The position numbers were made by a program, and so were the translations under genes. Shown in pieces: positions 10,467 through 37,503 of a stretch of DNA of 64,000 nt. Under the pieces are notes generated by a model that worked only from the letters and a program-made list of their open reading frames with translations, was not told the origin of the DNA and did not search any database. The stretch is from Candidatus Flemingiibacterium sp. (GTDB taxonomy: Bacteria > Bacillota > Clostridia > Oscillospirales > CAG-272). The DNA lies in the NCBI GenBank assembly GCA_045636265.1, contig JAZTXD010000078.1:66967-130966 (forward strand), in the 5' to 3' direction. Position 1 is the stretch's first letter. Each line of letters starts with the position of its first letter.

Positions 10467-10498
10467 TAATATAATAAATCACATCATCGGAGGTGCCT

Positions 10499-11506: not shown

Positions 11507-11519
11507 AGGAGAACACAAA

Positions 11520-18024: not shown

Positions 18025-19188
18025 TTAATCTAAGCTCGGGATGATAAGATTTTGACCGATATATATCTTATTTACATCGGAAATGCCGTTTAGAGCCATT
18101 ATTATCCTGTAGTTTGATAGGTAGTCCAAGCCGTTCTTGATGCAAATTGAAGACAAAGAGTCTCCTGCTTCGACGGTATACATGATGAAGTCAATACTGT
18201 TTTCACTTTGAGAAGGCATATCGGTGCTTGAATTATCCTGTTGTTGTTCGATATAACTTTTTAATTCAGTTAGCAGAATCTCTTGGTTTTCCAATTCGAT
18301 CTCATGATTTTCCAATTTGCTCAATAGATCTGCAGCCGTAGTTTTATCTGAACTATCAAGAATTCCATCAATAAAATAACTTTGTAAAGTTGTTATTTCA
18401 GCACCCTGTCTTTCAATTATATCTCTTTGTGCATCTAATGCTTCATTAAAGTCTGAAACAATCTCATTTTGTTTATCAATACGTTCCTGATAGTCTTTAT
18501 ATAATGAAATCAAGGAAATCCCCATAATTAGCGATATGACACTTAATATAGATACAACAGAAATTAGCGCCTTATTTGAGTTCCGCTTTGGCTGGACTAT
18601 CTCTTTTTTGATTTGTTCAATCTTAATTGGTTTGCCCACATCGTCATAGACATAGTACCCTTTGAGTTTTTCAATTTTTCCGTTTTTCCATTGGAAGAAT
18701 CCACGAATATTTTGAATCGGGTCAATTACATAGGCAATCTGGAATGGAAGATTAAAGAAATTCTCTTGGATAAACATGTCGTAATTTGACAAGAAAATTC
18801 CGTAGTTTGGATGCGTATGCTGCCAACCGATTATCTTCTTGTCCGGATACAAACGCTCGTGTTCCGAATGAATGTAGTCCCATGTCTCATGGGTAAAAGT
18901 AAGGGTGGAGGCAGAGGCGTCCGTGTATTTGGCTTCAACAAAGTTAGAGATTATCACATTTGTTTTTCCGAGCTCTTGACAGTAATCACCGAGGAGGATA
19001 CTGCCAAGTTCTTTGCTTGTGTCTGAAGCTGACAATTTTTCAAGTGCCTTGTAAATATCCTGTTTGATATATACCTTCACATCATCATTCTCAATTTCTC
19101 CGAAAGTCAAGAAATTCATAGGAAGTTGAACACTGCCAGTATCTTCTGTTTTTTCTTCTCCAAATTCTATTTCGAAATTCCTATCCAC
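18025..19188 (-). CDS. membrane-anchored JAB/JAMM (MPN+) metallopeptidase with extracytoplasmic coiled coil and C-terminal LysM domain
   Basis: IIGWQHTHPNYGIFLSNYD (HxH-x7-S-x2-D), one TM (ALISVVSILSVISLIMGISLISL), LysM YTVEAGDSLSSICIKNG...IYIGQNLIIP. GTG start 7 nt after GGAGG. Confidence 0.85.
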   Translation of the reverse strand: MDRNFEIEFGEEKTEDTGSVQLPMNFLTFGEIENDDVKVYIKQDIYKALEKLSASDTSKELGSILLGDYCQELGKTNVIISNFVEAKYTDASASTLTFTHETWDYIHSEHERLYPDKKIIGWQHTHPNYGIFLSNYDMFIQENFFNLPFQIAYVIDPIQNIRGFFQWKNGKIEKLKGYYVYDDVGKPIKIEQIKKEIVQPKRNSNKALISVVSILSVISLIMGISLISLYKDYQERIDKQNEIVSDFNEALDAQRDIIERQGAEITTLQSYFIDGILDSSDKTTAADLLSKLENHEIELENQEILLTELKSYIEQQQDNSSTDMPSQSENSIDFIMYTVEAGDSLSSICIKNGLDYLSNYRIIMALNGISDVNKIYIGQNLIIPSLD

Positions 19189-19200
19189 TATATTACCTCC

Positions 19201-20097
19201 TTATACAAACAGTATCGCAGTTAACAATGCATATCCAATAAGCGTAAGAACAGTAGCAGTAGTATTTACACCGCAATTTTTCAGAATAAACTGCGTTTTA
19301 TACGGCTCGCTCATGGTTTTAGCTTGATTGGCTTTGTTTTCAAGGAATTTCATATAAATATCGTTTCCAAAAACGCCAAGGACAATATACCCTGCAAACA
19401 AGAGCAACGAAAGAAAAACGGAACCAATTAGTGATAGCAAAAACGCCACTCCAAGAAGACCCGCACCATAACCATACATTTTTCGGTATATCATCCAATA
19501 AGGCGTAACCAAAAAAGCTGCCCAGTTCCACGATGTATTCTTGTTGTTTGATTTTAATTCTCGAAATTTTGGGATATAGTATTCCGCCTTAATTCCGATA
19601 AGCTGTTGAACATCATAATCAATGACGGTGCTTTGCTGTGATTGATAGCTATTATACCCATTAGAGTTATAATTGTTTGACGAATCAACATAGGAATAAA
19701 GATTTGTGCTTGCAGGATTTACTCGTGTATAAGCTATGGCCTGATGCTCTTGTTCAAAGCCCGTTGTAAGCCTATTGCCACACTTAGAACAAAACGAAGA
19801 AGAAGCATTGCTTTGTGCTCCGCATTTCGTGCAGTAAACCACACTGGATGGCGTATCATTTCTCCTTACGTCATCATAATTCATGTGGTTTGTGGTAACA
19901 GATGTAATAGTATCATCTGCAGACTTTATTGTACCAAGGCAGCCGAAAGTAGTACAGCCTTGATTTTCAACCCAACAATCTTTGTGGTGTGGCATATCGC
20001 ACTCGCTACAAACAACTATCGCATCATTAGACTTAAATTCGGTTTTGCAGAAAGGACAAATCTTGCCGGTATAATCATTCACCGATATTTCCTCCAT
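19201..20097 (-). CDS. RING/PHD-type (C4HC3) zinc-finger + zinc-ribbon protein with C-terminal multi-TM DUF2628-like domain (E3-like, paralog 3)
   Basis: CPFC-x12-CSEC-x3-HH-x2-C-x6-C-x4-C, then CTKCG-x10-CSKCG, then NWAAFLVTPYWMIYRKMYGYG. ATG 20097 is preceded by GGAGG. The track's longer ORF to 20313 is the alternate frame of the neighbour's repeat. Confidence 0.8.
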   Translation of the reverse strand: MEEISVNDYTGKICPFCKTEFKSNDAIVVCSECDMPHHKDCWVENQGCTTFGCLGTIKSADDTITSVTTNHMNYDDVRRNDTPSSVVYCTKCGAQSNASSSFCSKCGNRLTTGFEQEHQAIAYTRVNPASTNLYSYVDSSNNYNSNGYNSYQSQQSTVIDYDVQQLIGIKAEYYIPKFRELKSNNKNTSWNWAAFLVTPYWMIYRKMYGYGAGLLGVAFLLSLIGSVFLSLLLFAGYIVLGVFGNDIYMKFLENKANQAKTMSEPYKTQFILKNCGVNTTATVLTLIGYALLTAILFV

Positions 20098-21217
20098 CTT
20101 CGTTTGGTTCTTGGAGTGCATCATCTGTTGAAGCATTTGTTGAGTCATCTGTTGAAACATCTGCCGAGTCATCTGTCGAAGCGTCTGCCGAGTCATCTGT
20201 CGAAGCATCTGCTGAGTCATCTGTTGAAGCATCTGCTGAGTCATCCGTTGACTCGTCAGTTGCATCATCGTCAGAAGTGCTATTGTCAGAAGTGCTATTG
20301 TCAGAAGAATCATCTATTGTTTCGCCACCCGGTATAGTTGGCTCAGATTCTGGTTTAACAAAAATTCCCGCCTGGCTCAAAATGTCACTTAAATCTTCAA
20401 TTTGGCTGTTCAGTCCTTCGATTTCGGATGTTTGGGAAGAAATAAGCTGATGCATATATGCAAGACTTTGGTTTGCAGAGTCAACAAGTGTTCGCTGTTG
20501 GCTTTCAATTTTTTCAAGTTTGTTATTCGTTGAAATGTTGGAGAAAATCAAAAATACAACTGCAACGGAAAGGATAGCGAGTAGGATATTTTTTCCACTA
20601 AAAATTGTTGTATCTTCTTTTTGAACTACTTCATCATTCTCCACATCTACATCAATGTTTACACCGGTTTTATCATAAATGTAAAATCCTTTACACTTTT
20701 CGATTTTTCCGTTAATCCAGAAATAGAATCCCTCAATATTCTGGATTGGGTCAACTACGTAAGCAACTTGATGGTCCTCGTTAAAGAAATTTTGATGAAT
20801 AAATCTATCATATTCAGACAGAAAAATACCGAAGTCCGGATGCGTATGAATCCAACCTACAATTTTTTTGCCTTTATGCTTTTTTTCGATTTCTTTATGT
20901 ACATGCTCCCATGTTTCATGGGTGAACTTCAAAGTGGTGGGGGTTGAATCACAATGTTTAGCTTCAACAAAACCGCTAATTACAATATTAGTTTTTCCAA
21001 ATTCTTCAATTACCGAACCAACAAGCATACCGCCACTTTCGTTGGTAGTTTTATTCTCGGTAAAGTTATGAATCTCTTTGTACGCCTTTTGCGAAATATA
21101 TATGTTTTTGTTTTCTTCTACACGCTCGCCAATAGGGAGAATGTTCTGGGGCAGTACGTTCTCCGGCATTTCTGTTGCAATATTCTTTTTTATTTTGTTT
21201 TTTGCTTTCTTAGCCAT
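20075..21217 (-). CDS. membrane-anchored JAB/JAMM metallopeptidase with coiled coil and acidic STDDSADA-repeat tail
   Basis: ESGGMLVG...IVGWIHTHPDFGIFLSEYD, one TM, 8-aa tandem repeats at the C-terminus. ATG 21217 follows GGGAG. Confidence 0.85.
   Translation of the reverse strand: MAKKAKNKIKKNIATEMPENVLPQNILPIGERVEENKNIYISQKAYKEIHNFTENKTTNESGGMLVGSVIEEFGKTNIVISGFVEAKHCDSTPTTLKFTHETWEHVHKEIEKKHKGKKIVGWIHTHPDFGIFLSEYDRFIHQNFFNEDHQVAYVVDPIQNIEGFYFWINGKIEKCKGFYIYDKTGVNIDVDVENDEVVQKEDTTIFSGKNILLAILSVAVVFLIFSNISTNNKLEKIESQQRTLVDSANQSLAYMHQLISSQTSEIEGLNSQIEDLSDILSQAGIFVKPESEPTIPGGETIDDSSDNSTSDNSTSDDDATDESTDDSADASTDDSADASTDDSADASTDDSADVSTDDSTNASTDDALQEPNEDGGNIGE
20121..20300. repeat. coding tandem repeat: 6 x 24 nt (20121-20264) then 2 x 15 nt (20271-20300)
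   Basis: Units TCATCTGTTGAAGCATCTGCTGAG and variants, read directly from the sequence. Confidence 0.9.
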
Positions 21218-21222
21218 CTTTC

Positions 21223-22116
21223 TTACTCCCATACATCAATATCGAAATCCGTTCTTTCCCTCGGATCATATTGTAATGTAATATTTTTCTTTTTTTGATA
21301 TATTAACAAAACAGCAAACACGATATTTCCAATTAAAGATACTCCTGCAATGAAGAACGCAACATAAGTAACCATAGGAAGCTGCTCGTTATCGTAGTAA
21401 TCAGTTTTGTTTTCTTCGTTTTCATTTTCTGCCGTATAAGGCAGAGTTACTTCTGGCACTTCGATGTTTTGCAAAACATTTCCGTTTGTGTTTAACTCAA
21501 TTCCAAGAGATATAAGATAACTGCAAATCCTTGTTATCGGAATTGCCAGACCAATCCCTTCACTATCAAACATTTTTAATGTATTCATTCCAAGAACTTC
21601 GCCAGCATCATTAAGCAAGGGGCCGCCGCTATTACCCTCATTGATAGGGGCATCAATTTGAATATAAGAACGTTTTCCGATTATTCTCTCCTTAGCGGAA
21701 ACGCCACCTTTGGTAAGGGTATAGGCCATGCCCTTGGGGGCACCTATAGCATAAATATCATCACCAGTTTTCATTGTTGAAAGATCAGCAACCGTCAAAA
21801 AAGGAAAACTGACATCATTCACAACCAAAACAGCTATATCTTCATCCTCATTTATACCAAGAACAGATGCACCATACTCAGTACCTCCATAAGTGACGAC
21901 AGAGATACGTTTAGTGTTTTCAATAACGTGTGCGTTAGTTACTATGCAGTTTTCACCGATAGCAAACCCGCTGCCCATAGAATTCCCAGAGTATATGACG
22001 AAAACTGATTCATAAGCGTTTTCGGCTTCAAAGCCTATTGCACTCACGGATAAAGCGGAGGCGAATACTACCGCCACCACAATCATCAAAGAGAGTAATC
22101 CTCTGATTGGTTTCAC
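21223..22116 (-). CDS. exported trypsin-like (S1/HtrA-type) serine protease with C-terminal membrane anchor
   Basis: Signal peptide ...ALSVSA. Catalytic triad contexts TNAHV, DIAVL and GNSGGPL. C-terminal TM. GTG start after AGGAGG. Confidence 0.85.
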   Translation of the reverse strand: MKPIRGLLSLMIVVAVVFASALSVSAIGFEAENAYESVFVIYSGNSMGSGFAIGENCIVTNAHVIENTKRISVVTYGGTEYGASVLGINEDEDIAVLVVNDVSFPFLTVADLSTMKTGDDIYAIGAPKGMAYTLTKGGVSAKERIIGKRSYIQIDAPINEGNSGGPLLNDAGEVLGMNTLKMFDSEGIGLAIPITRICSYLISLGIELNTNGNVLQNIEVPEVTLPYTAENENEENKTDYYDNEQLPMVTYVAFFIAGVSLIGNIVFAVLLIYQKKKNITLQYDPRERTDFDIDVWE

Positions 22117-22140: not shown

Positions 22141-24030
22141 TTATTTAGTATTAAACACCAGCACAGAGTTGCCTATTGCAATTGCATCACCTTGACGCAA
22201 TACATGGCGTACTGTTTTCTGACCATTTACGATGGTGCCCATAGGAGTACCGCAGTCGGTCAAAACATACTTGCTACCTTCAAGCTTGATGTCGCAGTGA
22301 TGCGGACCGACAAGCTTATCTTTGAACAGTACAATGGTGTTTTTGCCGTTGTTACCAATGCTCGTGGTTCCTGCAAATACAAGATACTCTTTACCTTCAA
22401 ATTCACCACGGATAACTTTAAGCCATGCAGCTTTTGCAAACTGTTCAAGCAGACCGACACCTACGCCAATCAAAATGCCCATCACACCAATGGCAACACC
22501 TCTGGCAACGACGTCATTGGGGATAACATCGCAAACATAGTTAAACAGGAAACCGCCGATAAAGGCTCCCACCAAACCACCAAGAGCGCAGAAAAGTATA
22601 CGCTTCTTTTCCGGCTTTATTAAGCCGGCCGATACGCCAATACCGAGACCCATGATAGCCCAGCCCAAGCCGCGAATGAGTGCAGCTGTGAAATCGGCAG
22701 GATCATCTCCCAAAAGTTCAGCGTACATCCACTGTGCCAAGTAACCACTTATAAATCCGATAACAAGTGATACACAAGCGCCGATCAGTGCATATTTGAT
22801 TGCCTTTTCTTTAGAACCATAGTAGATTCCTTCACCAATTCCAAGGAACAATCCAATAAAGAGTGCAATAGCAGCAGACCAAAGAGCTGTACTTGTTCTT
22901 GTAACAATCGCCAGCGCATCCCAAAGGTCATCCTCATCTTCATCGTAAGTGTTCTCATACACTTCATAGAGAGCGTCATTTGCTTTATCATCATACGCTG
23001 AATAATCTTCAAGATAATCTATTGCTTTGTCTGATGCTCCATTTGAGAGCCAATCAGTGAAAGTGTTGCTTGCCTCGGCGTTTTTGTTTTCTTTTTTGCA
23101 ATACGCTTCAAATTCGTCGTATGCTTTCTCCCATGCAGAATCGGCTTTTGCTGTATATTCGAGATACTCAACAAATTCTGAACGTCCACAAAGTCTGGCG
23201 GCAGTCACGTCACTTGTAAGATTAGTTTCTGTTAACTCAGAAACACCAAATCCAATAAATGAACCTATTAAAGCCCAAAGTAAACCTTTGACTAAAATAG
23301 TCTTGAAATTCAGCTTGTTACTCTTTACTGTTCCACCGTGAGATACCGTTTGCATTCTCTGAGCAGTGGGGACAAACTCTATCCCGGCAAGTTCTTCAGC
23401 GGTAATCTCGAAGTCGTTCTCGTCAGTTTTTTCCAACACAGCAACAGGAGCAACGGTGGTATCGGGAGCAATATCTGTAGGAACTTCGGGGGCAGTAGTC
23501 GTATCTTCCATTACTGAGCCATCATCCCCAAACAAGTCAATCTCAACAACTTCTTTTGAAGAAGCATAGTCAGCGATATATAGGTCTATATTCCCAACCG
23601 GGAACAAGTGCTTGTTTTCCATAGCCCATTGAGCTGCGTCCGCAGACAGAGGGCTATAAGAGTTCCATGACTTGTACTGAATCATATCACCTATATTTAT
23701 GATAATATCGCTCAAAGATTCTCCCGCACCCCAGATATCTCCAATGCAAATTTGTCCATCACGGAAGTTTGGATGCCAAATGGGTGTAAGAATTTTACAG
23801 ATAGGTTTATAACGAGGATAATCAGCATGGAGAGTTATTTCAATTTCATGCCTACCTAAAGTTTCAATTCTACCGTCTTCTAAGAGGTAAATACCGTTCA
23901 CAAAATATGTAACGTGATATTTTTCCGGCAGCTCATCACCAATGGGCGTAACGATAATATTTTTGTGACCAGTAAAGTCTTTTTTTACTTGCTCATAGTC
24001 AGAGGCAAGTCGTCTCATTCTTGCAGTCAT
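22141..24030 (-). CDS. E2 (UBC-fold) ubiquitin-conjugating-enzyme-like domain fused to a polytopic membrane region and a C-terminal FHA-like domain
   Basis: N-terminus RLASDYEQVKKDF...YPRYKPICKILTPIWHPNFRDGQICIGDIW...SPLSADAAQW (HPN 86-88, Cys95). About 6 predicted TM helices. C-terminus IGNNGKNTIVL...HHCDI...YVLTDCGTPMGTIVNGQK...GDAIAIGNSVLVF. Confidence 0.85.
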   Translation of the reverse strand: MTARMRRLASDYEQVKKDFTGHKNIIVTPIGDELPEKYHVTYFVNGIYLLEDGRIETLGRHEIEITLHADYPRYKPICKILTPIWHPNFRDGQICIGDIWGAGESLSDIIINIGDMIQYKSWNSYSPLSADAAQWAMENKHLFPVGNIDLYIADYASSKEVVEIDLFGDDGSVMEDTTTAPEVPTDIAPDTTVAPVAVLEKTDENDFEITAEELAGIEFVPTAQRMQTVSHGGTVKSNKLNFKTILVKGLLWALIGSFIGFGVSELTETNLTSDVTAARLCGRSEFVEYLEYTAKADSAWEKAYDEFEAYCKKENKNAEASNTFTDWLSNGASDKAIDYLEDYSAYDDKANDALYEVYENTYDEDEDDLWDALAIVTRTSTALWSAAIALFIGLFLGIGEGIYYGSKEKAIKYALIGACVSLVIGFISGYLAQWMYAELLGDDPADFTAALIRGLGWAIMGLGIGVSAGLIKPEKKRILFCALGGLVGAFIGGFLFNYVCDVIPNDVVARGVAIGVMGILIGVGVGLLEQFAKAAWLKVIRGEFEGKEYLVFAGTTSIGNNGKNTIVLFKDKLVGPHHCDIKLEGSKYVLTDCGTPMGTIVNGQKTVRHVLRQGDAIAIGNSVLVFNTK

Positions 24031-24047: not shown

Positions 24048-24521
24048 TTAATCATTTCCTTTAGTAGGCTTTACGACATTGATTTTAAGCGCAGATATAC
24101 AAGCAATGAGAAGTCCCACGCAAATATAAATTCCCTTACTAATCTGAGCAGCCGCAATTTTGCCACCTCTGAGACATGCCTCAATAATGTAATTATAGGC
24201 ATAGCCACCAACATATTCAGTCATAGTGTATGAACTGATGTAATCGGATGGGGCACTGATACCAATACCAACAATTAACATAATAATTCCAACAGCTAAA
24301 CAGCCGACCGGAATAACATTGCTCATTATAGTTTTTTTGACATCAATTTTATCCTTCTGTCCGTTTTTTAGTTTGATGTTCATGTTGTACTGCTGGATGG
24401 GAGTAGGTTCAGATGCCGCCTGTGTATTGCATCTCTCGCCACATTGGGGACAAAAAGATGCATTTATATCAAGTTCTGTTCCGCATTTGAAACAGAACTT
24501 TTTGTTTGCTTCAGTATTCAT
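24048..24521 (-). CDS. zinc-ribbon membrane protein
   Basis: CFKCG-x10-CPQCG followed by 2-3 TM segments. Confidence 0.65.
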   Translation of the reverse strand: MNTEANKKFCFKCGTELDINASFCPQCGERCNTQAASEPTPIQQYNMNIKLKNGQKDKIDVKKTIMSNVIPVGCLAVGIIMLIVGIGISAPSDYISSYTMTEYVGGYAYNYIIEACLRGGKIAAAQISKGIYICVGLLIACISALKINVVKPTKGND

Positions 24522-24538: not shown

Positions 24539-25726
24539 TTACATCCCTTCAAAAACTTCTGCTTCATCTGATGTAAATTCATAATATGTAGTATTCGCAC
24601 CAACCCTGCCACCAATAATGTGTAACACTGGAATACCAATATCAAAAGGCGTTTTATCAAGGAAATCTTCTTCGCCTTTAATGGAATGAACACTATCAAA
24701 AGTCATTTGATTGCCACATTTTGGACAAGTCAGCATATTGCCTTTGAGCTTATGAACCGGCGTGAATAAATCCTTACATTCGCCGCAAGAGCATTTAGCA
24801 GTCGTAGCAATGTCCCTATCAAAATCGAGAACAGCTTTTTCTCCGAGTTCATTTCGGATTTCTGCTAAAATTTCTTTGAGAGTGATTGTTTTAACAGACC
24901 AGGGCTTTTCTACAATCTTTTCGTATGTATCATGGCTCATGCAGTCCTCTTTACGTTGATACTCCACGACATAGGAATCATGTGTTAAACCATTAAATAC
25001 ATATCCCTTGCCTGCAAGAGTAGGAAGATTTCTGTCTGCATGGAGCAACTTCAGCATTTCTTGCACTTGGATGCCTGCGATAATCGATGAAGAAGTTGGA
25101 GTGGTAGGAATTTTACCCTCCGCCATCTGCTCGTGGGTAAGCAAAGCGCAGGATTTGCGCTTGTTAATCAGCATCCAGTCCGTTTCGGTCATGGTGCATT
25201 CATAGCAAGCCCCCTGCCCGGGGATGAAGACGCGGGCAAAGCCGTTAAGCGCTTCGATAGCGCCATCAATCCAAGGTCGATCCACCTTGTAGCATGACTG
25301 GTTAATGGAAAGACGTGCCTCACGGTTATCCAAACCACCCAAAACCACATTCATTCTGCGGAACACACCCAAGCCAACATCATCAATAATGTTAGCAATA
25401 AACGCCTTAGCCTTGACATCAGGATTCATTTCCTTAGCCCGCTCGGCAGCAACTTCCGCCTTATAACGGCCCACATCACGCGCTCTGTAAAGAACTGATC
25501 GAGTGAGGTTGGTGCTTTCAATGGCATCCATATCGTATACAAGGATTCTACCGATGCCCAACAAAGCCAGATTCTTAATCAATTCATTTCCGATAGCACC
25601 AGCGCCTACGACCATGATAGTTGCATTTTTTAGCCGCTCCTGATCCCACCAGGGAATCAGCCGAAGACGAGCGTAGCGGTCTTCTTCAAAGTCAGAGCTT
25701 TTCAGCTCAAGGGTATCATTCTCCAT
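24539..25726 (-). CDS. E1-like adenylyltransferase (ThiF/MoeB/UBA family)
   Basis: VVGAGAIGNE nucleotide loop, NLTRS, GLDNREAR, CYEC and CSCGEC...CPKCG zinc motifs, candidate crossover-loop Cys in KRKSCALL. Confidence 0.9.
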   Translation of the reverse strand: MENDTLELKSSDFEEDRYARLRLIPWWDQERLKNATIMVVGAGAIGNELIKNLALLGIGRILVYDMDAIESTNLTRSVLYRARDVGRYKAEVAAERAKEMNPDVKAKAFIANIIDDVGLGVFRRMNVVLGGLDNREARLSINQSCYKVDRPWIDGAIEALNGFARVFIPGQGACYECTMTETDWMLINKRKSCALLTHEQMAEGKIPTTPTSSSIIAGIQVQEMLKLLHADRNLPTLAGKGYVFNGLTHDSYVVEYQRKEDCMSHDTYEKIVEKPWSVKTITLKEILAEIRNELGEKAVLDFDRDIATTAKCSCGECKDLFTPVHKLKGNMLTCPKCGNQMTFDSVHSIKGEEDFLDKTPFDIGIPVLHIIGGRVGANTTYYEFTSDEAEVFEGM

Positions 25727-26001
25727 TACATTGCACCTGCTGTAATTTCAGGCTGAAGACGAAGAACATCACCGTCTTTGATACCAGCTTCGGCAAGTGT
25801 TTGAGCTTCAAGCAGCTGCCTGCCGGTGACCTTATGGATAAACTTATAGCTAATGGGGTTGCCATCGGGACCGACAGAGGGGAGTTTAATTTTCTCCACA
25901 AGCTTTACCATGATAATGCCGCACTTAATGTCGTCCGGCAGACCAACTTTCTGTTCTTTGTTGCCAGTAGCATCCACAATAATTACATTAACTTTTGCCA
26001 T
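25726..26001 (-). CDS. ubiquitin-like beta-grasp protein (Ubl)
   Basis: 91 aa. ...TLAEAGIKDGDVLRLQPEITAGAM* is the classic Ubl C-terminal pattern. Its stop overlaps the E1 start (ATGTAATGG). Confidence 0.75.
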   Translation of the reverse strand: MAKVNVIIVDATGNKEQKVGLPDDIKCGIIMVKLVEKIKLPSVGPDGNPISYKFIHKVTGRQLLEAQTLAEAGIKDGDVLRLQPEITAGAM

Positions 26002-26031
26002 TTTAGTATTCTCCTTATTATTTTAGTTGCA

Positions 26032-26907
26032 TTAATCTAATAAGTTTTCGAGTGCTCTGTAGCAGGCGAGAAACTCATCAGTAATTTCGTTGTTATTATC
26101 ACTATATGAGTTGTAGTTGCCGGAAGGGTCTGTTGCAAGGCTGTAAAATTCTGTATACACGTTATACAAATCTTTTACTGCGTCACAGAGGTCTTCAATC
26201 TCATCTAAATCTTCTTCAGAAATATGTTCGGGAACTTTTTTGAGTTCAGAGTATAAGTCCTTCATTTGAGTGTCATACTCTCCAGCCTGGTCGATTTCAT
26301 CAGACTTATCAATCAACGCAAGCAAAATTGCAGTATCGATATCAGCTCCGTGCTTGTCTTCCCAAATGTTCTCATACCAATACTTCTGGACAGTATCGGC
26401 AATGTCTTCAAGATTAGCCCCGGCAGTTATAGACAAGGTAAGGAAATCTTCGACATTTTCAATGTACTCTTTCCTTGCTTCCTCAGCCTTCTTTTCACCT
26501 ATTGTTTTAGAAATGAAGAAACCGAGAGCAGCAACGACTACCAAAACAACTGCAATTACAATGGGGAGAGCTTTCGATTTTGCCTTTTTCTTTTCAATCC
26601 CCGTATTGAACTGGCTGATAGCAGTGTTGACATTAGTATCTACGGCCATGCCAACTTTTTGTCCACACTTAGAACAGAACTCCTGTCCGGCACCCAATGT
26701 AGCTCCGCAATTATTGCAGGCAGCAATAGGATTAGTTCCTTTTTCTTCGTAATGCTGCTCAGAGCAACCGAAAGTAGTGCACCCCTTGTTTTCTTCCCAA
26801 CACCCATCGTGGTGGGGAATGTTGCAAGCAGGGCATACTTTCACACCGTCTCCTTCTTTAATCTCCGTTTTGCAAAACGGACAAGTTTTTCCCACATAGT
26901 TTTCCAT
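26032..26907 (-). CDS. RING/PHD-type (C4HC3) zinc-finger + zinc-ribbon single-pass membrane protein (E3-like, paralog 2)
   Basis: CPFC-x12-CPAC-x3-HH-x2-C-x6-C-x4-C, CNNCG-x10-CSKCG, TM ALPIVIAVVLVVVAALGFFI, acidic helical C-terminal domain. Confidence 0.8.
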   Translation of the reverse strand: MENYVGKTCPFCKTEIKEGDGVKVCPACNIPHHDGCWEENKGCTTFGCSEQHYEEKGTNPIAACNNCGATLGAGQEFCSKCGQKVGMAVDTNVNTAISQFNTGIEKKKAKSKALPIVIAVVLVVVAALGFFISKTIGEKKAEEARKEYIENVEDFLTLSITAGANLEDIADTVQKYWYENIWEDKHGADIDTAILLALIDKSDEIDQAGEYDTQMKDLYSELKKVPEHISEEDLDEIEDLCDAVKDLYNVYTEFYSLATDPSGNYNSYSDNNNEITDEFLACYRALENLLD

Positions 26908-26932: not shown

Positions 26933-28153
26933 TTAGTCCCATTTATATTCAGAAACTTTACTTGTAATTTTCGAGTTCTGCTTCTTTACATTAGAAATAG
27001 CATTGTCTACACTTTTTTCCTTGGTATCTTTACTCGAATAATACGTTGAATAAGCAACGGAAGGCCGCTTATTTATGTAGTTGTGATAGTCTTCGTATTT
27101 TTTATACAGCTCATTTAATGAAGAATATAATTTCTTATATTCTTCAGGTGCGTGCTTCAGTTCCAGCATAATTAATTCCAACGCACTCATATTTTGGTTT
27201 GCTATAGAAAGAGAATTTTCGAAAGCTTGCGCAGTATCAGCATCTACTACATAAGTATAGCCGTTTGCATACCGTGACCAATAATAATAGACCATATAAG
27301 AAGAACCGCTGTAAAGCCTGGACATAGCAGTTGAAATATCAGCATCATAAAGATCGGTATACAAAAGCGTGTTGTATACACAACCGCCAAGCACTTTATC
27401 AAGGTCATATCCTCGCGAAATCAGAGCATATGCAATCTGAGCATCCGATAAATAATCGTTTTTTATCTCTGCGATCTTGCTTTCGCTGTCCGAAAAGCCT
27501 TCAAGTGAAAGAAGAATCTCAATTGCATCAAAATGATTGTTGTTTTCGAACAGCTTAATTGCATCATCATATTTTTCTTGTTTTATGGCATTTTCGCAAT
27601 TTATGATTTGTTCTTCGCTGTCCTTAAAACCTCCTAATTCCTTGAATAAACTAATCGCACTTTCGTAGTCGCCGTTGGTGTACATTTCCTTTGCTTCTTG
27701 ATATTTAGCATTCGGAGCAAAATATAAGAACCAAGAAACAACAATACCGGCAATAACAGCACACACGATAATCGGCAACCATATAGTCAAAAACCTTTTT
27801 TTCTTTTTCTTGGCATTTGTAATATTGCGATTGAATTCTTCTATCGAGCGGTTTGCCTCATGTGTAACCGCAGTGTTGTTGCCGCAAGATGGACAGAACA
27901 AATCTCCGTCATTAAATATTGCTCCGCAGATTGTACATTTCTTTTCTGTCATTATCGCGTTTTGCTCAACGCCTGTTGCAGGTTCGCCTTCCAAGGTGTT
28001 ATGCTGTGAACAGTTTGGCGAAGAACAGCCTTTGTTTTCTTCCCAACAACCGCTGTGATGGGGAATGTTGCAAGCAGGGCAGACTTTTACATTATCTTCC
28101 TCTTTGATTTCCGTTTTGCAAAACGGACAAATTTTCCCAATGTAGTTTCCCAT
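26933..28153 (-). CDS. RING/PHD-type (C4HC3) zinc-finger + zinc-ribbon single-pass membrane protein with TPR-like repeats (E3-like, paralog 1)
   Basis: Same Cys/His spacing. CTICG-x10-CPSCG. One TM. Repeats ...GDYESAISLFKELGGFKDSEE... and ...HFDAIEILLSLEGFSDSES... Confidence 0.8.
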   Translation of the reverse strand: MGNYIGKICPFCKTEIKEEDNVKVCPACNIPHHSGCWEENKGCSSPNCSQHNTLEGEPATGVEQNAIMTEKKCTICGAIFNDGDLFCPSCGNNTAVTHEANRSIEEFNRNITNAKKKKKRFLTIWLPIIVCAVIAGIVVSWFLYFAPNAKYQEAKEMYTNGDYESAISLFKELGGFKDSEEQIINCENAIKQEKYDDAIKLFENNNHFDAIEILLSLEGFSDSESKIAEIKNDYLSDAQIAYALISRGYDLDKVLGGCVYNTLLYTDLYDADISTAMSRLYSGSSYMVYYYWSRYANGYTYVVDADTAQAFENSLSIANQNMSALELIMLELKHAPEEYKKLYSSLNELYKKYEDYHNYINKRPSVAYSTYYSSKDTKEKSVDNAISNVKKQNSKITSKVSEYKWD

Positions 28154-28224: not shown

Positions 28225-28914
28225 TTACTTTAAATCATGCGGCAGACACATATCACACGGTTCATACTCGCCGTTTTCAAGCTCTTCAATCGTCATCCGA
28301 CGAATATTGTTTTTTCCCTTTACAAAAATGCATTTTTCTTCGTGATACTTATTTCCGGCTGAAGTCAAATAGTATTCGCCATAATAGTGGTGTTCCTTTT
28401 GAATGGCGTTAAATACTGTTAAACCGATTGCAGATACTATAAGCAGAGCGACTACAATGCTGACAACCTTTCTATGGCTCTTGATAGTATTGAGAGCTTT
28501 ACGACCAATACCGTTGCTTAAAATATAATGGGTAAATTCGTTCGCTTCATATTCCTCAACAACATCTTTTCCTATAACGGGATAGGAGGAAAGATGTCCA
28601 CAGTATATGTGCCCCTCCTCGTGAGCCAACACCAAGCGTTTTTCATCATCAGAAAGGTCTTCGTGCAAAAAAACGAGTCGCCGTTGCTTATCAGCAAAGG
28701 TAAAGCCTTTTGATTTGTCTATAGCTTCTTCAATACCCAATGCTTCAATTAACGTGGTTACGTTTTCATCATTGAATATATGGTTATATTCAATGATGGT
28801 ATATCCTTGCAACTTGATGATTCGACATAAATCTTCAAGTGTCACCTCATTCAAGTTATATTCGATGAGAAACGCTCTCGCTTTTGCTTTAATGTCATTC
28901 TTCATTGATATCAT
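28225..28914 (-). CDS. ImmA/IrrE-family zinc metallopeptidase with TM segment and C-terminal Cys-rich tail
   Basis: HEXXH motif in LVLAHEEGHIYCGH, TM VVSIVVALLIVSAIGLTVF, tail KYHEEKC...PCDMC. Confidence 0.8.
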   Translation of the reverse strand: MISMKNDIKAKARAFLIEYNLNEVTLEDLCRIIKLQGYTIIEYNHIFNDENVTTLIEALGIEEAIDKSKGFTFADKQRRLVFLHEDLSDDEKRLVLAHEEGHIYCGHLSSYPVIGKDVVEEYEANEFTHYILSNGIGRKALNTIKSHRKVVSIVVALLIVSAIGLTVFNAIQKEHHYYGEYYLTSAGNKYHEEKCIFVKGKNNIRRMTIEELENGEYEPCDMCLPHDLK

Positions 28915-29452
28915 TTTTTTGGATAGACCTTAATGCTTTCATAGCTTCAACATCCTTGGAAGAAGGTATAGCATTCAACAAGCTGATTCCGCCAAAAGAT
29001 TTTACGACGGCTTCACTGGGGAGTTGTGTGCACCTCGCATACTCTACCATAATCATTGAATTGATTGCTTGTTTGGCTTTCTCATCCAGGTATTCAAGAA
29101 TATCCTCTGCTTGATTTCCCAAAATTGAGCTGAGACCGAAACTGGAATAGTCCATACCATCATTAAACCGAATAACTAACTCCTTGGGAAATAAGGAAAG
29201 CATACGCAGCATTTTATGTGTTTTTTGATTGTGATCAAAAAACAACACTAAAGAAAGATATGTGCTCCACGACATTCTTCTGACTTTACGTTCAATCGCA
29301 CTGTAAGTTTGGCGAGAAACGCCTATAAGATTTGCCAATTCTTCTTGTGATATTTCCGCGTGTGTTCTTAGTGCAGGCAAGTTTGGCGTAAGTGTTGCAA
29401 TAAACTCGTCCTTTTCTGCATCAGTCAGCAACCATTTTGATACAGATTCCAT
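28895..29452 (-). CDS. XRE-family HTH regulator (first gene of the Ubl operon)
   Basis: ISQEELANLIGVSRQTYSAIERKVRRMSWSTY. Confidence 0.8.
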   Translation of the reverse strand: MESVSKWLLTDAEKDEFIATLTPNLPALRTHAEISQEELANLIGVSRQTYSAIERKVRRMSWSTYLSLVLFFDHNQKTHKMLRMLSLFPKELVIRFNDGMDYSSFGLSSILGNQAEDILEYLDEKAKQAINSMIMVEYARCTQLPSEAVVKSFGGISLLNAIPSSKDVEAMKALRSIQKNDINEE

Positions 29453-29540: not shown

Positions 29541-29569
29541 ATTATACACCATGTTGTCAGATTTGTCAA
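29541..29569 (-). promoter_or_regulatory. perfect consensus sigma-A promoter TTGACA-17-TATAAT for the Ubl operon, with a TTGACAA-ATC-TGACAA direct half-site repeat over the -35
   Basis: The reverse strand reads TTGACAaatctgacaacatggtgTATAAT, ~90 nt upstream of the XRE start. Confidence 0.65.
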
Positions 29570-30303: not shown

Positions 30304-31836
30304 TCAGTGAATACAAAGAAAAATCGGGAATCGTAAGATTCCCGATCCTGGTCTAACACCTTTAGTTATATCCGAACTTTTTAGATCTGAAAACAGAACT
30401 GTTTTTGCATCACGTTTGTAGTTGAATGTGAAAAGAAGACGGTCGTTATAAACGAATATGGCATTGACGAAGGTATCGATCAATCGTTTGCGCTGTTCCA
30501 ACACTGTTATGTCGTATTCGCGCATACGCTCGAACCAAAATCTCACTTGTTCCTCGGTAAGTAGTGGACGCTTCATCTTTTCTTTAATGATCTCTGTTTC
30601 AATGTTGCGGTGCTTTTCTTCAAGCGCATCCAATCGTTTCTTGGTCATAGGGGTAATGATACCTTGTTCAATGGCATTCAGCATATTGTTGATTGCCTTT
30701 TTCGCTTCGGCAAGCTCGTGTTCAAGATGGGGAATAACAGTGTTTTCTTTTTGCTGAAACTCCATAAACATATGAACAATATCGTCAATCAGGTTATCAT
30801 CGTGTAGTGCCTTTCTTATTTCCTCCACGACAATATCCTCGATCCAAGCCTTGCGTAGAGGTTTCATATGACAACCTGTATGTTTTTTTGCGCTGACACA
30901 CTTGTAATAATGATACACCTGCTTGGTTGCACTTGTGCCGGATTCTCCCACCATTAAGGACTTACATTCACCACAGAACAATTTTGTAGTGAGAATATAA
31001 TCGTCTTCTGCTTTGTGACGAGCGGGAGCTTTTTTGTTTTTAGCGATTTTCTCTTGAACTCGGTCAAACAAATCTTTTGGAACGATAGCAGGGATACCAT
31101 CGGGGACAACGATATCACGATAAATGTATTCGCCTATATAACGTCGATTTTTTAAAAGACTTGCCACGTTGTCTATACTGATACGACCGCCGCGCGTATT
31201 CTTGACTTCGTGCTGATTCAGTATAGCGGCAATCTCACTCATTGTCATACCTTCATCATAGTTTTGATATGCTTCTAAAACAAAAGGTGCGGTAAGCGGA
31301 TCGATATGATAATTTTGTTCCTTGTCGGTCGTATATCCGATAGGAAGTGTGCCGCCGTTATATTTGCATTTCAGCGCGTTCTCGGTGTGTCCGCGAATAA
31401 CCTTTTCGGATAGATCGGCAGAGTAGTATTCCGCCATACCTTCAAGTACGGATTCCAAAAGAATACCTTCAGAGCCTTCGGAGATAGATTCTGTCGCTGA
31501 CATAACCTTAACGCCATTGCGCTTTAGAACCGCTTTGTAGTTTGCGGAGTCGTAACGGTTACGTGCAAAACGGTCGAGTTTCCATACGATGGCTAAATCG
31601 AAGTTGCGCTTTGCGCTGTCCTTAATCATCTTTTGAAAATCGGGGCGTTTATCTGTCTTAGCAGAGAAGGCACGGTCAATATACTCACCAACTACCGAGA
31701 TATCATTCTTTCGCGCAAAGGCATAACACTCGCGAAGCTGACCTTCAATAGACTCTTCACGCTGATTTTCACTTGAATAACGCGCATATATCACGGCTCG
31801 CATAGAACTCTCGTTGTTTATTTTCTTCTTTGTCAT
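30304..31836 (-). CDS. large serine recombinase
   Basis: AVIYARYSSENQ catalytic-Ser motif, resolvase domain, recombinase domain, Cys-rich zinc ribbon CGEC...YYKC, C-terminal coiled coil. Confidence 0.9.
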   Translation of the reverse strand: MTKKKINNESSMRAVIYARYSSENQREESIEGQLRECYAFARKNDISVVGEYIDRAFSAKTDKRPDFQKMIKDSAKRNFDLAIVWKLDRFARNRYDSANYKAVLKRNGVKVMSATESISEGSEGILLESVLEGMAEYYSADLSEKVIRGHTENALKCKYNGGTLPIGYTTDKEQNYHIDPLTAPFVLEAYQNYDEGMTMSEIAAILNQHEVKNTRGGRISIDNVASLLKNRRYIGEYIYRDIVVPDGIPAIVPKDLFDRVQEKIAKNKKAPARHKAEDDYILTTKLFCGECKSLMVGESGTSATKQVYHYYKCVSAKKHTGCHMKPLRKAWIEDIVVEEIRKALHDDNLIDDIVHMFMEFQQKENTVIPHLEHELAEAKKAINNMLNAIEQGIITPMTKKRLDALEEKHRNIETEIIKEKMKRPLLTEEQVRFWFERMREYDITVLEQRKRLIDTFVNAIFVYNDRLLFTFNYKRDAKTVLFSDLKSSDITKGVRPGSGILRFPIFLCIH

Positions 31837-32779: not shown

Positions 32780-33394
32780 TTACCTCCTGTTAATTCTTTT
32801 CAAAACGTGCTCTGCCACGCCTTGAATGATAATGTTATCGTAGATCTGATTTGGATAGCTCTCCTTATCTTCATTCTCTGCAATCAATATAACCTTGCGC
32901 TTGGAGCGATCATAGGATAGTGTTTTGAGAGTAGCCGAGTCATCGATCAATGCAACTACGATATCTCCCTCATTAGCGGTGTTCTGCTTACGGATCAACA
33001 CTAAGTCGCCGCTATCGATTCCTGCGTTAATCATAGAATGACCTTTTGCTCGAAGCCAAAAGTATTCGCCTTTGCCGATGAAATCGGTTGGAATCGGTAA
33101 AGAATCATCGTACTGCTCCTCTGCATAGATCGGAGAGCCGCAGGCGATATCACCGCTGATTGGTGCGTGGAACTTGCCTTGCAGTTCTTCAATGTAGGGT
33201 GTAATGATGTGTCGCCCGTCAAAATACAGTTTGTCCATTTCTGTCATACGGTGCAGATATTTGTGTACCGTTCCCACCGCCAAAGAGAGGCTTCGCGAGA
33301 TCTCCGCAATCGTCGGAGAGTAGCTGTTTTCGTTGTAATATTCGTCTACAAAGGCGATAATCCTCTGCATCGTTTCTTCGCTTAAATATCGCAT
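32780..33394 (-). CDS. LexA-like repressor (wHTH + S24 peptidase)
   Basis: N-terminal PTIAEISRSLSLAVGTVHKYL. Cleavage-region analog GDIACGSPI. GHSM (Ser) and ATLKTL (Lys). Confidence 0.8.
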   Translation of the reverse strand: MRYLSEETMQRIIAFVDEYYNENSYSPTIAEISRSLSLAVGTVHKYLHRMTEMDKLYFDGRHIITPYIEELQGKFHAPISGDIACGSPIYAEEQYDDSLPIPTDFIGKGEYFWLRAKGHSMINAGIDSGDLVLIRKQNTANEGDIVVALIDDSATLKTLSYDRSKRKVILIAENEDKESYPNQIYDNIIIQGVAEHVLKRINRR

Positions 33395-33667: not shown

Positions 33668-33880
33668 ATGGCTGCAAGTTATAAAAAACTCTGGAAATTG
33701 CTGATTGACCGTGATATGAAGAAGAAAGATCTTCGTGAACTGACTAAACTCAGCTCCTCAACCATTGCCAAAATGACAAAGAATGAACCCGTTAGTACCG
33801 ACGTCCTTATTAAAATCTGCTCGGTACTTAATTGTGATGTCGGAGATATTATGGAGATCGTTCCCGATAGTAAGGAGTGA
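33668..33880 (+). CDS. small XRE-family HTH protein (controller-like)
   Basis: LWKLLIDRDMKKKDLRELTKLSSSTIAKMTKNEPVSTDVLIKICSVLNCDVGDIMEIV. 4-nt overlap with the next gene. Confidence 0.8.
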   Translation: MAASYKKLWKLLIDRDMKKKDLRELTKLSSSTIAKMTKNEPVSTDVLIKICSVLNCDVGDIMEIVPDSKE

Positions 33881-36800: not shown

Positions 36801-37503
36801 TTATATCAGCGAGGACGGAGAGGTCGTCTGTGATCACTTGTCTCCAAAGGCTATGCTTGATAAGCTTAGATTCCTTTGCAAAGGCAAGACGGCTCCCGTT
36901 CCGGAGCTTTACCGTCAGTTCAATAAGGAAACAAAGGACGGACGTGATATGGCGGACATCTCAGCATTGCTTGGCGATGCAATTTCCTCCGTCATTCAAA
37001 CCAAGGAAGAAAGCGAGATTGACGCATTTCTTGGTGGCAGTCAGATGAGTTTCCTTTCAAATGAAATCAAGGGACTTGATGACTTCGAACTTATCTGCTT
37101 CCTCGTTATTAAAGAGCCAAGCACTCCAATCGTAAAAAAGACTCCGTTCAGATTGGTTGTTGCAGGCGGTCGCGAGTTCGAGAACTACAAGCTTCTTTCA
37201 ACTCAGCTCGACAAGTATCTCCCCGACATCATCAAAACCCATGACATTATCATTCTCAGCGGTTGCGCTAAAGGTGCCGATAGTCTGGGTGAGCAGTATG
37301 CTCGTGAGCACGGATTTGCGATTGAACAGCATCCGGCTGCCTGGGAGCGTTACGGCAATGCTGCAGGCCCTATCAGAAACAAGGAAATGACAGGTGTAGC
37401 AGATGCAGTTGTTGTTTTCTGGGATGGAAAGTCCAGAGGAAGCAGAAGTATGATCAACTGCGCCAAGGAACAAGGCATTCCTTGCAAGATCGTAAGATAC
37501 TAA
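33877..37503 (+). CDS. SNF2-family helicase with C-terminal SLOG/DUF2493-like domain
   Basis: ILADSVGLGKTF (I), VVIDESHNFRN (II), LSATPVNN (III), QRFGRIDRIG (VI). C-terminal ~125 aa carry SGCAKGADSLGEQYA...AAGPIRNKEM...VVVFWDGKSRGS. Confidence 0.85.
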   Translation: MIMELLDNVNKTLKDDLSDTIREGSRVSIAAACFSMYAFQELKKQLEGIDELRFIFTSPTFTTEKTKKESREFYIPRLSREKSLYGTEFEVRLRNELTQKAIAKECAEWIRSKVAFKSNITGEMLMGFANVDETSYSPINGFTTVDLGCERGNNMFTAIMKTSAVENSRYYLSKFDEIWSDPSRLQDVTEEVIESISTAYNENSPDFIYFVTLFNIFSEFLEDISEDVLPNEATGFKESKIWSMLYNFQRDAVLAIINKLEKFNGCILADSVGLGKTFTALAVIKYYENRNKSVLVLCPKKLSNNWNTFKDNYLNNPIASDRLRYDVLYHTDLSRTHGTSNGLDLDRLNWGNYDLVVIDESHNFRNGGKSDIENEKENRYLRLLNKVIRQGVKTKVLMLSATPVNNRFNDLKNQLALAYEGNSSLINGKLNTKNSIEEIFRQAQRAFNAWSKQEPQNRTTENLLKMLDFDFFEVLDSVTIARSRKHIEKYYDTTDVGSFPQRLRPISLYPPLTDLEGAINYNEIFEQLMLLNLAIYTPSHYILDSKKIKYAELYDDERVSVGFTQANREQGIRRLMAINLMKRMESSVASFRLTLGRIDDLIKTTIETIDNFNKYADTQLNLEDISHLTDFDFDDQNADELFSFGKKVKISLGDMDYLSWRRDLNKDKEILDLLTVMVADITPEHDSKLQELFDVLKNKIENPINPDNRKVIIFTAFSDTAEYLYENVSKYILKKFRLNTAMVTGSVEGRSTVPRLRCDLNNVLTCFSPISKGKALLMPNDNTEIDVLIATDCISEGQNLQDCDFLINYDIHWNPVRIIQRFGRIDRIGSKNERIQLVNFWPDVTLDEYIDLKARVETRMKIVDMTATGDDNILAEEKAELEYRKAQLKRLQEEVVDIEEMSSGISIMDLGLNEFRLDLLEYVKTNPDLDKTPFGLHAVAEAKEDCPPGVVFILKNRSNSVNIDNQNRLHPFYMVYISEDGEVVCDHLSPKAMLDKLRFLCKGKTAPVPELYRQFNKETKDGRDMADISALLGDAISSVIQTKEESEIDAFLGGSQMSFLSNEIKGLDDFELICFLVIKEPSTPIVKKTPFRLVVAGGREFENYKLLSTQLDKYLPDIIKTHDIIILSGCAKGADSLGEQYAREHGFAIEQHPAAWERYGNAAGPIRNKEMTGVADAVVVFWDGKSRGSRSMINCAKEQGIPCKIVRY

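Follow-up and report, generated by a model that had tools for sequence, protein, structure and literature searches.

The closest described relatives of the system considered here show how a ubiquitin-like protein (Ubl) can be made with residues beyond its terminal Gly. In Caldiarchaeum, the precursor CsUb-pre (87 residues) is cut after Gly-Gly by CsRpn11 (Fuchs et al. 2018, PMC6043591). In BilA, the Ubl of the Bil (bacterial ISG15-like, BilABCD) anti-phage operons, the Gly is conserved and up to nine residues that are not conserved come after it (Chambers et al., 10.1101/2023.09.26.559546); a residue after the Gly blocks ATP binding in the activating enzyme (E1), and the JAB peptidase BilC removes it (10.1101/2023.09.26.559546). 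In operons of the oxyester-based Bub pathway, a non-JAB peptidase cuts a pre-protein of Ubl and conjugating enzyme (E2) after a conserved Gly (PMC11601596), the E1 and E2 have no catalytic Cys and are attributed Ser/Tyr chemistry, and the peptidase is of a Ser-His type (PMC11601596). Operons encoding a Ubl, an E1, an E2, a prokaryotic RING protein and a JAB were also predicted by Burroughs, Iyer and Aravind in 2011, a work that is computational according to the papers citing it (PMC11601596, 10.1101/2023.09.26.559546). Here, we describe an operon with these components in a 64,000-nucleotide stretch of DNA (the window) from Candidatus Flemingiibacterium sp. (contig JAZTXD010000078.1), with emphasis on its Ubl gene. 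The 91-residue product of that gene is, in our judgment, probably the precursor of a conjugatable Ubl that would be trimmed by a cognate JAB as part of a whole conjugation cycle.

The Ubl gene is located on the minus strand and runs from 26001 to 25726, comprising 91 codons and a TAA stop. An earlier note on this DNA, made from the sequence alone, had called a Ubl gene at 25726-26001. A strong Shine-Dalgarno (SD) sequence precedes this open reading frame (ORF), and its homologues and its Pfam match establish that it is a real gene. The product (MAKVNVIIVD...GIKDGDVLRLQPEITAGAM; all 91 residues are MAKVNVIIVDATGNKEQKVGLPDDIKCGIIMVKLVEKIKLPSVGPDGNPISYKFIHKVTGRQLLEAQTLAEAGIKDGDVLRLQPEITAGAM) ends in ...LRLQPEITAG-AM, and the Gly89 followed by Ala-Met to which the note had drawn attention can be read directly from codons 25737-25729. 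The overlap that it had reported between the Ubl stop and the E1 start is also correct: the junction string ATGTAATGG is present and the two genes share 1 nucleotide (TAATG). Two other positions for the start of E1 were considered and rejected. The ATG at 25726 is the sole in-frame start ahead of the conserved N-terminal residues of E1, which rules out an alternative start, and the ATG of Met91 belongs to the frame of the Ubl, with the TAA stop directly after it.

In terms of family, the Ubl matched Pfam PF08817 (YukD-type beta-grasp) with 47.1 bits relative to a cut-off of 27, and it had 893 homologues at E<=1e-3 in a large protein database and 678 in a 50%-identity library. An AlphaFold2 (AF2) model, for which the input alignment consisted of 32 diverse homologues, had a mean predicted local distance difference test score (pLDDT) of 85.5 and the beta-beta-alpha-beta-beta topology of ubiquitin, with strands at residues 3-10, 16-22, 51-56 and 79-85 and a helix at residues 27-37. 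The best Foldseek match of this model in the PDB was the ubiquitin of Caldiarchaeum subterraneum in complex with an Rpn11 homologue (6fno_D; E 5e-7, template modelling (TM) score 0.71, 26% identity), and further matches were to ubiquitin, SUMO and NEDD8 (E about 1e-6, TM score about 0.7) and to BilA. Both AF2 and Foldseek agree with the beta-grasp pattern recognized in the earlier note, and the 'GIKDGDVLRLQP' stretch that it cited includes the last strand, residues 79-85 (VLRLQPE). Residues 88-91, which comprise Ala88, Gly89 and the two residues after them, are disordered in the model (pLDDT <50). The NCBIfam match to EccD was far under the cut-off (18.8 versus 95 bits), and no NCBIfam model scored above cut-off. 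The name given to orthologues of the Ubl by NCBI is 'EsaB/YukD family protein', which is misleading for a probable conjugated modifier.

To place the C-terminus in context, loci were collected in a scan that used one genome per species and alignment A2, which is narrower than the alignment A1 used for the residue comparisons below. At least 578 loci were found, so that the host operon occurs in at least 578 species-level genomes, mostly of gut or rumen Clostridia, and the best 80 (L001-L080) were analyzed. Nearly all of these 80 were from Clostridia, including Oscillospiraceae, Acutalibacteraceae, Lachnospiraceae, Christensenellaceae, Clostridium, Tissierella and Anoxynatronum. Massiliimalia massiliensis, Clostridium weizhouense and Tissierella creatinini are carriers that can be cultivated. 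In every one of them the Ubl had ...[TI]AG at the position of Gly89. A profile alignment of the Ubl domains that cover the last strand gave a similar result, with Gly at position 89 in 238 of 256 domains and Ala-Gly in 236 of 256; the exceptions were repeats from within multi-Ubl proteins, entries with a truncation or frameshift and a small number of Ubl domains in fusions with other proteins. Alignment A1 extends down to 39% identity, and its sole invariant columns were P22, G47, Y52, A88 and G89. The residues after the Gly were variable. Among the 65 loci in which the Ubl is not fused to another protein, tails of 0, 1, 2, 3, 4, 5, 6 and 7 residues were found in 15, 8, 8, 14, 11, 3, 5 and 1 loci, respectively, and the tail sequences (AM, AL, AV, RI, GEL, GVK, KQNG, SINE, GNYGK, RGENGK and others) are unrelated, differing even where the Ubl bodies are 93-98% identical. 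Of the operon products, the Ubl body is the most conserved. Its median identity to the window is 92%, and the corresponding values are 76% (E1), 66% (E2), about 50% (JABs) and about 40% (RING proteins); such slow evolution recalls the extreme conservation of ubiquitin. An invariant Gly with a variable tail reads as the classical signature of a Ubl precursor. Conservation of the Gly and variation of the residues after it were the two points that the earlier note had asked to be checked in orthologues, and together with the Ubl fusions considered below they favor its reading of a processed precursor.

The origin of these tails appears to lie in the arrangement of the Ubl gene relative to that of E1. 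Of the 79 loci for which sequence downstream of the Ubl is available, 77 have E1 as the next gene. Among 64 loci, the Ubl stop overlaps the E1 start in 37, lies 0-15 nucleotides upstream of it in 20 and lies farther away in seven, which amounts to an overlap or a spacer of <=15 nucleotides in 57 of the 64 short-tail loci. The overlaps fall into the classes -1, -4, -8, -11, -14 and -17, and the -1 class to which the window belongs accounts for 15 of the 64. A stop/start overlap of 1 nucleotide is common in bacterial operons and is unremarkable alone; by the counts given here, the conservation of a tight Ubl-E1 junction exceeds chance. In 47 of 64 loci, 6-11 nucleotides separate the Gly codon from the start codon of E1, regardless of tail length, and the best pairing with the 16S anti-SD sequence falls on the Ala-Gly codons (e.g., GCAGGTG) in 50 of 52 loci, with a median duplex energy for E1 of -8.5 kcal/mol versus -4.1 for random 20-mers. 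For the window, the E1 duplex has an energy of -7.1 kcal/mol and ends 7 nucleotides ahead of the ATG. Judged by this pairing, the Ala-Gly codons of the Ubl double as the ribosome-binding site of E1. With the SD sequence on the Ala-Gly codons, the tail would be whatever the Ubl frame encodes before its stop, and the tail classes are in line with this: tail-less Ubls stop immediately after the Gly, with a short spacer before E1, tails of two or three residues pair with TAATG or TGATG, and tails of four to six residues with the ending ..NG[KE] arise from out-of-frame reading of the E1 codons ATG-GAA-AAT-GA (Met-Glu-Asn-Asp). As such, the tail appears to be a neutral consequence of overlapping genes rather than a conserved propeptide. 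Translational coupling of the Ubl and E1, which the earlier note had suggested on the basis of the overlap in the window, is supported as a conserved feature by the tight junction and by the location of the predicted E1 SD sequence inside the Ala-Gly codons; this support extends to coupling and not to the stoichiometric expression that the note had linked with it.

A different role for the tail would be that of a regulatory safety catch, whereby the Ubl is kept inert until a signal such as envelope damage or phage infection activates the peptidase, and processing would be the step at which the pathway is controlled. Such a role would fit the extracytoplasmic LysM or coiled-coil parts of the JABs, which could sense the envelope, and the Bil E1 structure, in which a post-Gly residue blocks ATP binding. 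We consider it improbable, however, since 15 of the 65 non-fusion orthologues have no tail at all and a gate so freely lost is unlikely to be essential, and since the presence of a tail follows the geometry of the E1 start and no feature of the operon.

Evidence that something is removed after the Gly comes from the other 15 of the 80 loci, in which the Ubl frame runs on past ...EITAG-A into a complete membrane protein of 107-318 residues. These natural fusions are of two types. In the first, the Ubl is joined to a zinc-ribbon and transmembrane protein (L001, L002, L004-L007, L059-L061 and L063), the partner being homologous to the 157-residue gene product of the window (26-27% identity over residues 9-148 by tblastn, in L002 and L004). 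In the second, it is joined to a transmembrane or lipobox segment and TPR-like 'GxYKDS' repeats (L025, L040, L042, L044 and L046), and this partner matches the extracytoplasmic part of the 406-residue RING protein of the window (BLASTP 4e-9). At the fusion loci, the sole Ubl within 10 kb on either side is the fused one. Because the only local Ubl is fused, the adjacent E1 could use it only after cleavage at G|A, and so cleavage after the Gly would be obligatory in these 15 loci if that E1 does use it. The residue after the Gly (P1') is Ala in all 15 fusions, where no nearby E1 start constrains the DNA, and this suggests that TAG|A is the preferred cleavage site, matching the G|AM of the window. 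The fusions recall eukaryotic ubiquitin-fusion precursor genes and link the Ubl functionally to its partner membrane proteins. We also entertain, tentatively and with more doubt than conviction, a broader view in which the Ubl is a general cleavable N-terminal module that JABs release from short tails or from membrane proteins of the operon (zinc-ribbon/transmembrane proteins and TPR-like lipoproteins), these loci then being bacterial counterparts of ubiquitin-fusion precursor genes within a membrane-embedded machine of E1, E2, RING proteins and deubiquitinase (DUB). The sequences of the parts of this machine are nearer to Uba1, UBC and Rpn11 than are those of any bacterial system characterized so far.

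More distant relatives of the Ubl were found in further fusions. The metagenomic proteins P0209 (508 residues) and P0246 (1052 residues), at about 39% identity, are Ubl-Ubl-Hint fusions in which the Cys of the Hint domain (Pfam PT-HINT, 5e-8 and 1e-11) comes directly after the Ubl Gly (PEMTAG|CFPAG and PNVRAG|CFLQD), and P0246 additionally has a CHAT protease domain. Hint chemistry at the G|C junction could yield a Ubl thioester without E1. P0171 (211 residues) is a head-to-tail di-Ubl in which both repeats end in PEM[IT]AG and the linker has about 14 residues; it looks like a small precursor of the polyubiquitin type. Other fusions were P0197, P0182, P0178 and P0243, with the compositions Ubl(EITAK)-JAB-LysM, Ubl(EITAE)-coiled coil-LysM, Ubl-JAB-like-Ubl and Ubl(RIEAG)-E2, respectively. 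In P0197 and P0182 another residue stands in place of the terminal Gly, and the Ubl domains of these two may act as recognition modules that cannot be cleaved.

As for the peptidase responsible, the earlier note had proposed the two JABs or the ImmA peptidase of the operon, and the co-occurrence of the genes distinguishes between them. At least one JAB was present in all 51 loci with 7.5 kb or more of downstream sequence (only one in 15 of these loci), and JAB was the sole peptidase type present at every locus. Since the catalytic residues of the JABs are also intact, that half of the proposal is strengthened. ImmA, in contrast, fared poorly: it was present in just 10 of the 53 loci with 4 kb or more of upstream sequence, it is paired with the helix-turn-helix (HTH) protein, and tails were present in 36 of the 43 loci without it. 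The HtrA-like protease of the operon was missing in 13 of 51 loci, although tails or a fusion are retained in 11 of these 13, and the signal peptide of the protease means that it should act outside the cytoplasm. These counts rule out both the HtrA-like protein and ImmA as obligatory maturases.

The same counts bear on the possibility that the Ubl is matured by some other peptidase, whether the M78-type ImmA/IrrE protein, the HtrA-like protein or a housekeeping carboxypeptidase, and that the JABs are deconjugases only. Both ImmA and the HtrA-like protein are encoded in the operon of the window, and there is a precedent for maturation by a non-JAB peptidase in the Bub operons (PMC11601596). Nevertheless, this arrangement seems unlikely to us given the distribution of ImmA and the HtrA-like gene and the expected extracytoplasmic action of the latter, and a carboxypeptidase would be unable to free the Ubl from partners of 107-318 residues. 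We therefore return to the JABs, which are the best-supported maturases, and, of the two, the LysM-bearing JAB at 18025-19188 is the most likely one, with the JAB at 20075-21232 possibly redundant.

The residues expected of a functional pathway are conserved in the other operon products. Invariant in JAB paralogue 1 are E65, H129, H131, S139 and D142, and in JAB paralogue 2 E60, H124, H126, S134 and D137. In E1, C193 (motif N.RKSC..L) and eight other Cys, nine in total, are kept in 76 of 76 sequences, and the E2 motif WHPNF.D.QICIGDIW is invariant in 69 of 69. The invariance of Cys193 and the zinc Cys of E1 and of the E2 motif argues for a working thioester cascade. The nearest PDB relatives by sequence were Uba1 (4e-31), UBA3 and SAE2 for E1, ahead of ThiF (8e-19) and MoeB (7e-17); Rpn11 (2e-8), CSN5, AMSH and CsRpn11 (6fjv, 6e-4) for the LysM-bearing JAB; and eukaryotic UBC enzymes (5.5e-8) for E2.

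The anatomy of the Ubl, its conservation, its modelled fold, the intact catalytic residues of its partners and their co-occurrence are the observations on which the proposal of a JAB-trimmed precursor is based; the cleavage, the choice of peptidase, the thioester transfer, the targets and the physiological role are the parts that we propose, as follows. A membrane-anchored JAB/MPN+ protein would cut after Gly89 and so remove Ala-Met post-translationally, and the free carboxylate of Gly89 would then be adenylated by the adjacent E1. The Ubl would pass as a thioester to Cys193 of E1 and then to Cys95 of the membrane-embedded E2, and the Prok-RING proteins would help to ligate it to targets on the cytoplasmic side of the membrane. 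The same JABs would probably reverse the modification. The tail would have no sequence-specific role, and any tail would be tolerated because the peptidase would trim whatever comes after the Gly, from one residue up to a fused membrane protein.

A number of observations weigh against this proposal. About a quarter of the non-fusion orthologues (15 of 65) are tail-less and have nothing to be trimmed, so not every member of the family depends on processing of a precursor. The JABs are anchored in the membrane, while the Ubl is soluble. Modelled by AF2 as a single sequence, P0197, a natural fusion of Ubl, JAB and LysM, gave a pLDDT of 37, which leaves recognition of the Ubl by the JAB without structural support. 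Our literature search found no experimental study of a Clostridial membrane-tethered operon of the YukD type. Finally, Pfam and NCBI both place the Ubl with YukD/EsaB, and the YukD of B. subtilis was reported as not conjugated (PMC1779556).

The last of these points would suit an alternative in which the Ubl is a non-covalent adaptor like YukD or EsaB that is never conjugated, ...GAM is a plain C-terminus and E1 and E2 act on something else. The PF08817 match of 47 bits, the NCBI name of the orthologues and the report on YukD (PMC1779556) are all in its favor. We nonetheless regard it as very improbable, in that genes for type VII secretion are absent from the operon, the flexible tail of the Ubl ends in an invariant Ala-Gly, and the Ubl adjoins E1 (77 of 79 loci) in the company of an E2, RING proteins and JABs that keep their catalytic residues. 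The relatives with Ubl-G|C-Hint, Ubl-E2 and di-Ubl architectures likewise indicate chemistry at the Gly.

In the window, the Ubl gene is part of a row of 12 minus-strand genes that extends from a promoter match at 29569-29541 to about 18025, in the order HTH, ImmA, RING (406 residues), RING (291 residues), Ubl, E1, zinc-ribbon/transmembrane protein, E2-FHA, HtrA-like, JAB, RING and JAB-LysM (Table 1). The HTH and ImmA genes (28225..29452), with which the operon begins, probably form an optional regulatory module. The Prok-RING_1 domains belong to PF14446, a family that we take to have been defined on this kind of gene neighborhood. The called start of the third RING gene, 20313, which would result in an overlap of 239 nucleotides with the upstream gene, is probably wrong, as orthologue matches begin from residues 72-81 and point to a start near 20097. 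JAB paralogue 1 has acidic STDDSADA repeats at its C-terminus, which are encoded by a 24-nucleotide tandem repeat at 20121-20251 (5.5 copies, 89% match).

Table 1. Coordinates of the Ubl gene, its junction with E1 and the other operon features in the window.
Feature	Position	Strand	Evidence or remark
Perfect sigma-70 consensus TTGACA-17-TATAAT (12/12), likely operon promoter	29541..29569	-	consensus match only
HTH protein	28895-29452	-	
ImmA/IrrE-type M78 peptidase	28225-28914	-	
Prok-RING_1 + zinc ribbon + transmembrane + TPR-like repeats, 406 residues, putative E3 (ligase)	26933..28153	-	PF14446 9e-15
Prok-RING_1 + zinc ribbon + transmembrane, 291 residues, putative E3	26032..26907	-	PF14446 8e-11
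Ubl SD AAGGAG, strong	26011..26016	-	anti-SD duplex -8.2 kcal/mol
Mature Ubl (predicted), Met1-Gly89, beta-grasp, ends ...LRLQPEITAG	25735..26001	-	Pfam, AF2, Foldseek, alignment A1
E1 SD-like CAGCAGGTG, made by Ubl Thr-Ala-Gly-(Ala) codons	25734..25743	-	duplex -7.1 kcal/mol
Ubl Gly89 codon GGT	25737-25735	-	
Two-residue tail Ala90-Met91, predicted to be removed by cleavage	25729..25734	-	variable orthologue tails; pLDDT <50
Ubl Ala90 codon GCA	25734-25732	-	
Ubl Met91 codon ATG	25731-25729	-	
Ubl stop TAA	25728-25726	-	
TAATG junction; base 25726 common to Ubl stop (25728-25726) and E1 ATG (25726-25724)	25724..25728	-	
E1, 395 residues: ThiF-type adenylation domain, crossover-loop Cys193, C-terminal zinc-Cys domain	24539..25726	-	Pfam ThiF 1.3e-54
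Zinc-ribbon + transmembrane protein, 157 residues; homologues fused to Ubl C-terminus elsewhere	24048..24521	-	tblastn
E2: UBC fold HPN...Cys95, transmembrane segments, C-terminal FHA	22141..24030	-	Pfam UQ_con, FHA
HtrA/trypsin-like serine protease, accessory; N-terminal signal peptide, C-terminal transmembrane segment	21223..22116	-	
JAB/MPN+ paralogue 1: cytoplasmic JAB, transmembrane segment, acidic repeat tail	20075..21232	-	
Prok-RING_1 + zinc ribbon + transmembrane	19201..20313	-	true start probably near 20097
JAB/MPN+ paralogue 2: transmembrane segment, coiled coil, LysM; JAB type present in every locus	18025..19188	-	

The flanks of the operon include, on the right, a large serine recombinase (30304-31836), a LexA/S24-type repressor (32780-33394) and a 1208-residue SNF2 helicase with a C-terminal SLOG (YAcAr) domain (33877-37503), and, on the left, an HD-domain protein (8388-10391) and two tandem ORFs of 337 residues (10493-11506 and 11487-12500), of which Pfam identifies the first as an ADP-ribosylglycohydrolase. 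The GC content is about 0.40 at 20-32 kb versus about 0.45 at 1-16 kb to the left and 0.43 at 32-36 kb. The operon region could represent an integrated mobile element or a defense island. Several contigs with this Clostridial operon were also found in records labelled Escherichia coli, Synergistaceae/Synergistales, Roseiflexaceae and Sumerlaeota (L006, L041, L051, L055 and L077), and these represent either binning contaminants or horizontal transfer of the operon. A scan of IMG/VR found no relative, and hence no evidence that the operon is carried by phages. A search of plasmids returned housekeeping matches of the ThiF/MoeB type only, plus one distant cyanobacterial operon on the Crinalium epipsammum plasmid pCRI9333.03 (L081, 7995-11472) with the order E1 - Ubl - Ubl - E2 - JAB. 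One of its Ubls ends in ...NAEGG-Y, a one-residue tail, and its paralogue ends in ...YVEVS and lacks the Gly; the latter looks like a non-conjugatable copy.

A conserved Gly with disposable residues after it and trimming by a JAB are already proven for BilA/BilC and CsUb/CsRpn11, and the present locus adds no new principle in that respect. Its value is in the carrier, namely a complete, widespread and eukaryote-like operon of E1, E2, RING, JAB and Ubl that is membrane-tethered and has kept its catalytic residues, with a Ubl that is about as strongly conserved as ubiquitin is among eukaryotes. Beyond the earlier note, our analysis suggests that the tail is a by-product of the SD sequence and start overlap of E1, that ImmA and HtrA are not required and that the fusions would make cleavage obligatory. 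Taking Gly89 as the likely reactive end, using constructs that end at G89 and treating the JABs as likely maturases together offer a direct route to reconstitution of the system. The fusions found in nature are ready cleavage substrates and indicate membrane proteins of the operon as functional partners.

The comparison with known systems leaves the window close to several of them and identical to none of those considered here. A type VII secretion locus with YukD was ruled out since there were no ESX, FtsK-type EssC or WXG100 domains among the 12 operon products and the flanks that were scanned. The Ubl shares with YukD/EsaB its PF08817 membership and beta-grasp fold; YukD, however, is found in ESAT-6/FtsK-type secretion loci, whereas the Ubl of the window has an invariant Ala-Gly and E1, E2 and JAB neighbors. 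Type II CBASS (a cyclic-oligonucleotide-based antiphage signalling system) with Cap2/Cap3, in which E1 and E2 are fused and a CD-NTase is what becomes conjugated, was ruled out because E1 and E2 are separate genes here and there is no CD-NTase, the PADLOC matches being at the domain level only. Membership of Bub was ruled out because C193 of E1 and C95 of E2 are invariant and the peptidase is a JAB. The predicted tri-ligase Prok-RING systems, as far as they are described in the papers that cite them, have the same domain set as the window: Ubl, E1, E2, Prok-RING_1 (PF14446) with a transmembrane segment, and JAB.

The Bil system resembles the window in the conserved Gly with a variable tail, in the presence of a JAB and in the catalytic Cys of E1 and E2, and BilC both pre-processes and deconjugates. 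Bil has neither a RING E3 nor membrane anchoring, however, and the window has both. In addition, a PADLOC scan of the window gave no match to BilA, BilB or BilC, only a weak partial match to BilD (1.5e-7), and no system-level match, so that by these profiles the window system is not Bil. Its E1, E2 and JAB are nearer by sequence to eukaryotic Uba1, UBC and Rpn11 than the parts of Bil are. The Caldiarchaeum operon (PMC6043591; Hennell James et al. 2017, PMC5654768) is similar in that it likewise consists of a Ubl, an E1, an E2, a RING-type E3 and an Rpn11-like JAB. The differences are that the Caldiarchaeum Ubl ends in Gly-Gly with a fixed nine-residue tail, whereas that of the window ends in Ala-Gly with tails of 0-7 residues or fused proteins among its orthologues; that the window has a bacterial host, a Ubl of the YukD type by Pfam and several RING and JAB paralogues; and that its E2, RING proteins and JABs are membrane-anchored, with FHA, LysM and TPR-like additions.

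Eukaryotic ubiquitin is itself made as precursors (polyubiquitin, Ub-L40 and Ub-S27a) from which a DUB frees it, and S27a contains a zinc ribbon. The Clostridial relatives are alike in having both fusions and head-to-tail repeats, as seen in the Ubl-zinc-ribbon proteins and the di-Ubl. In eukaryotes, however, the partners are ribosomal and are freed by a cysteine DUB, whereas here they are membrane proteins of the operon and the peptidase that we propose is a JAB.

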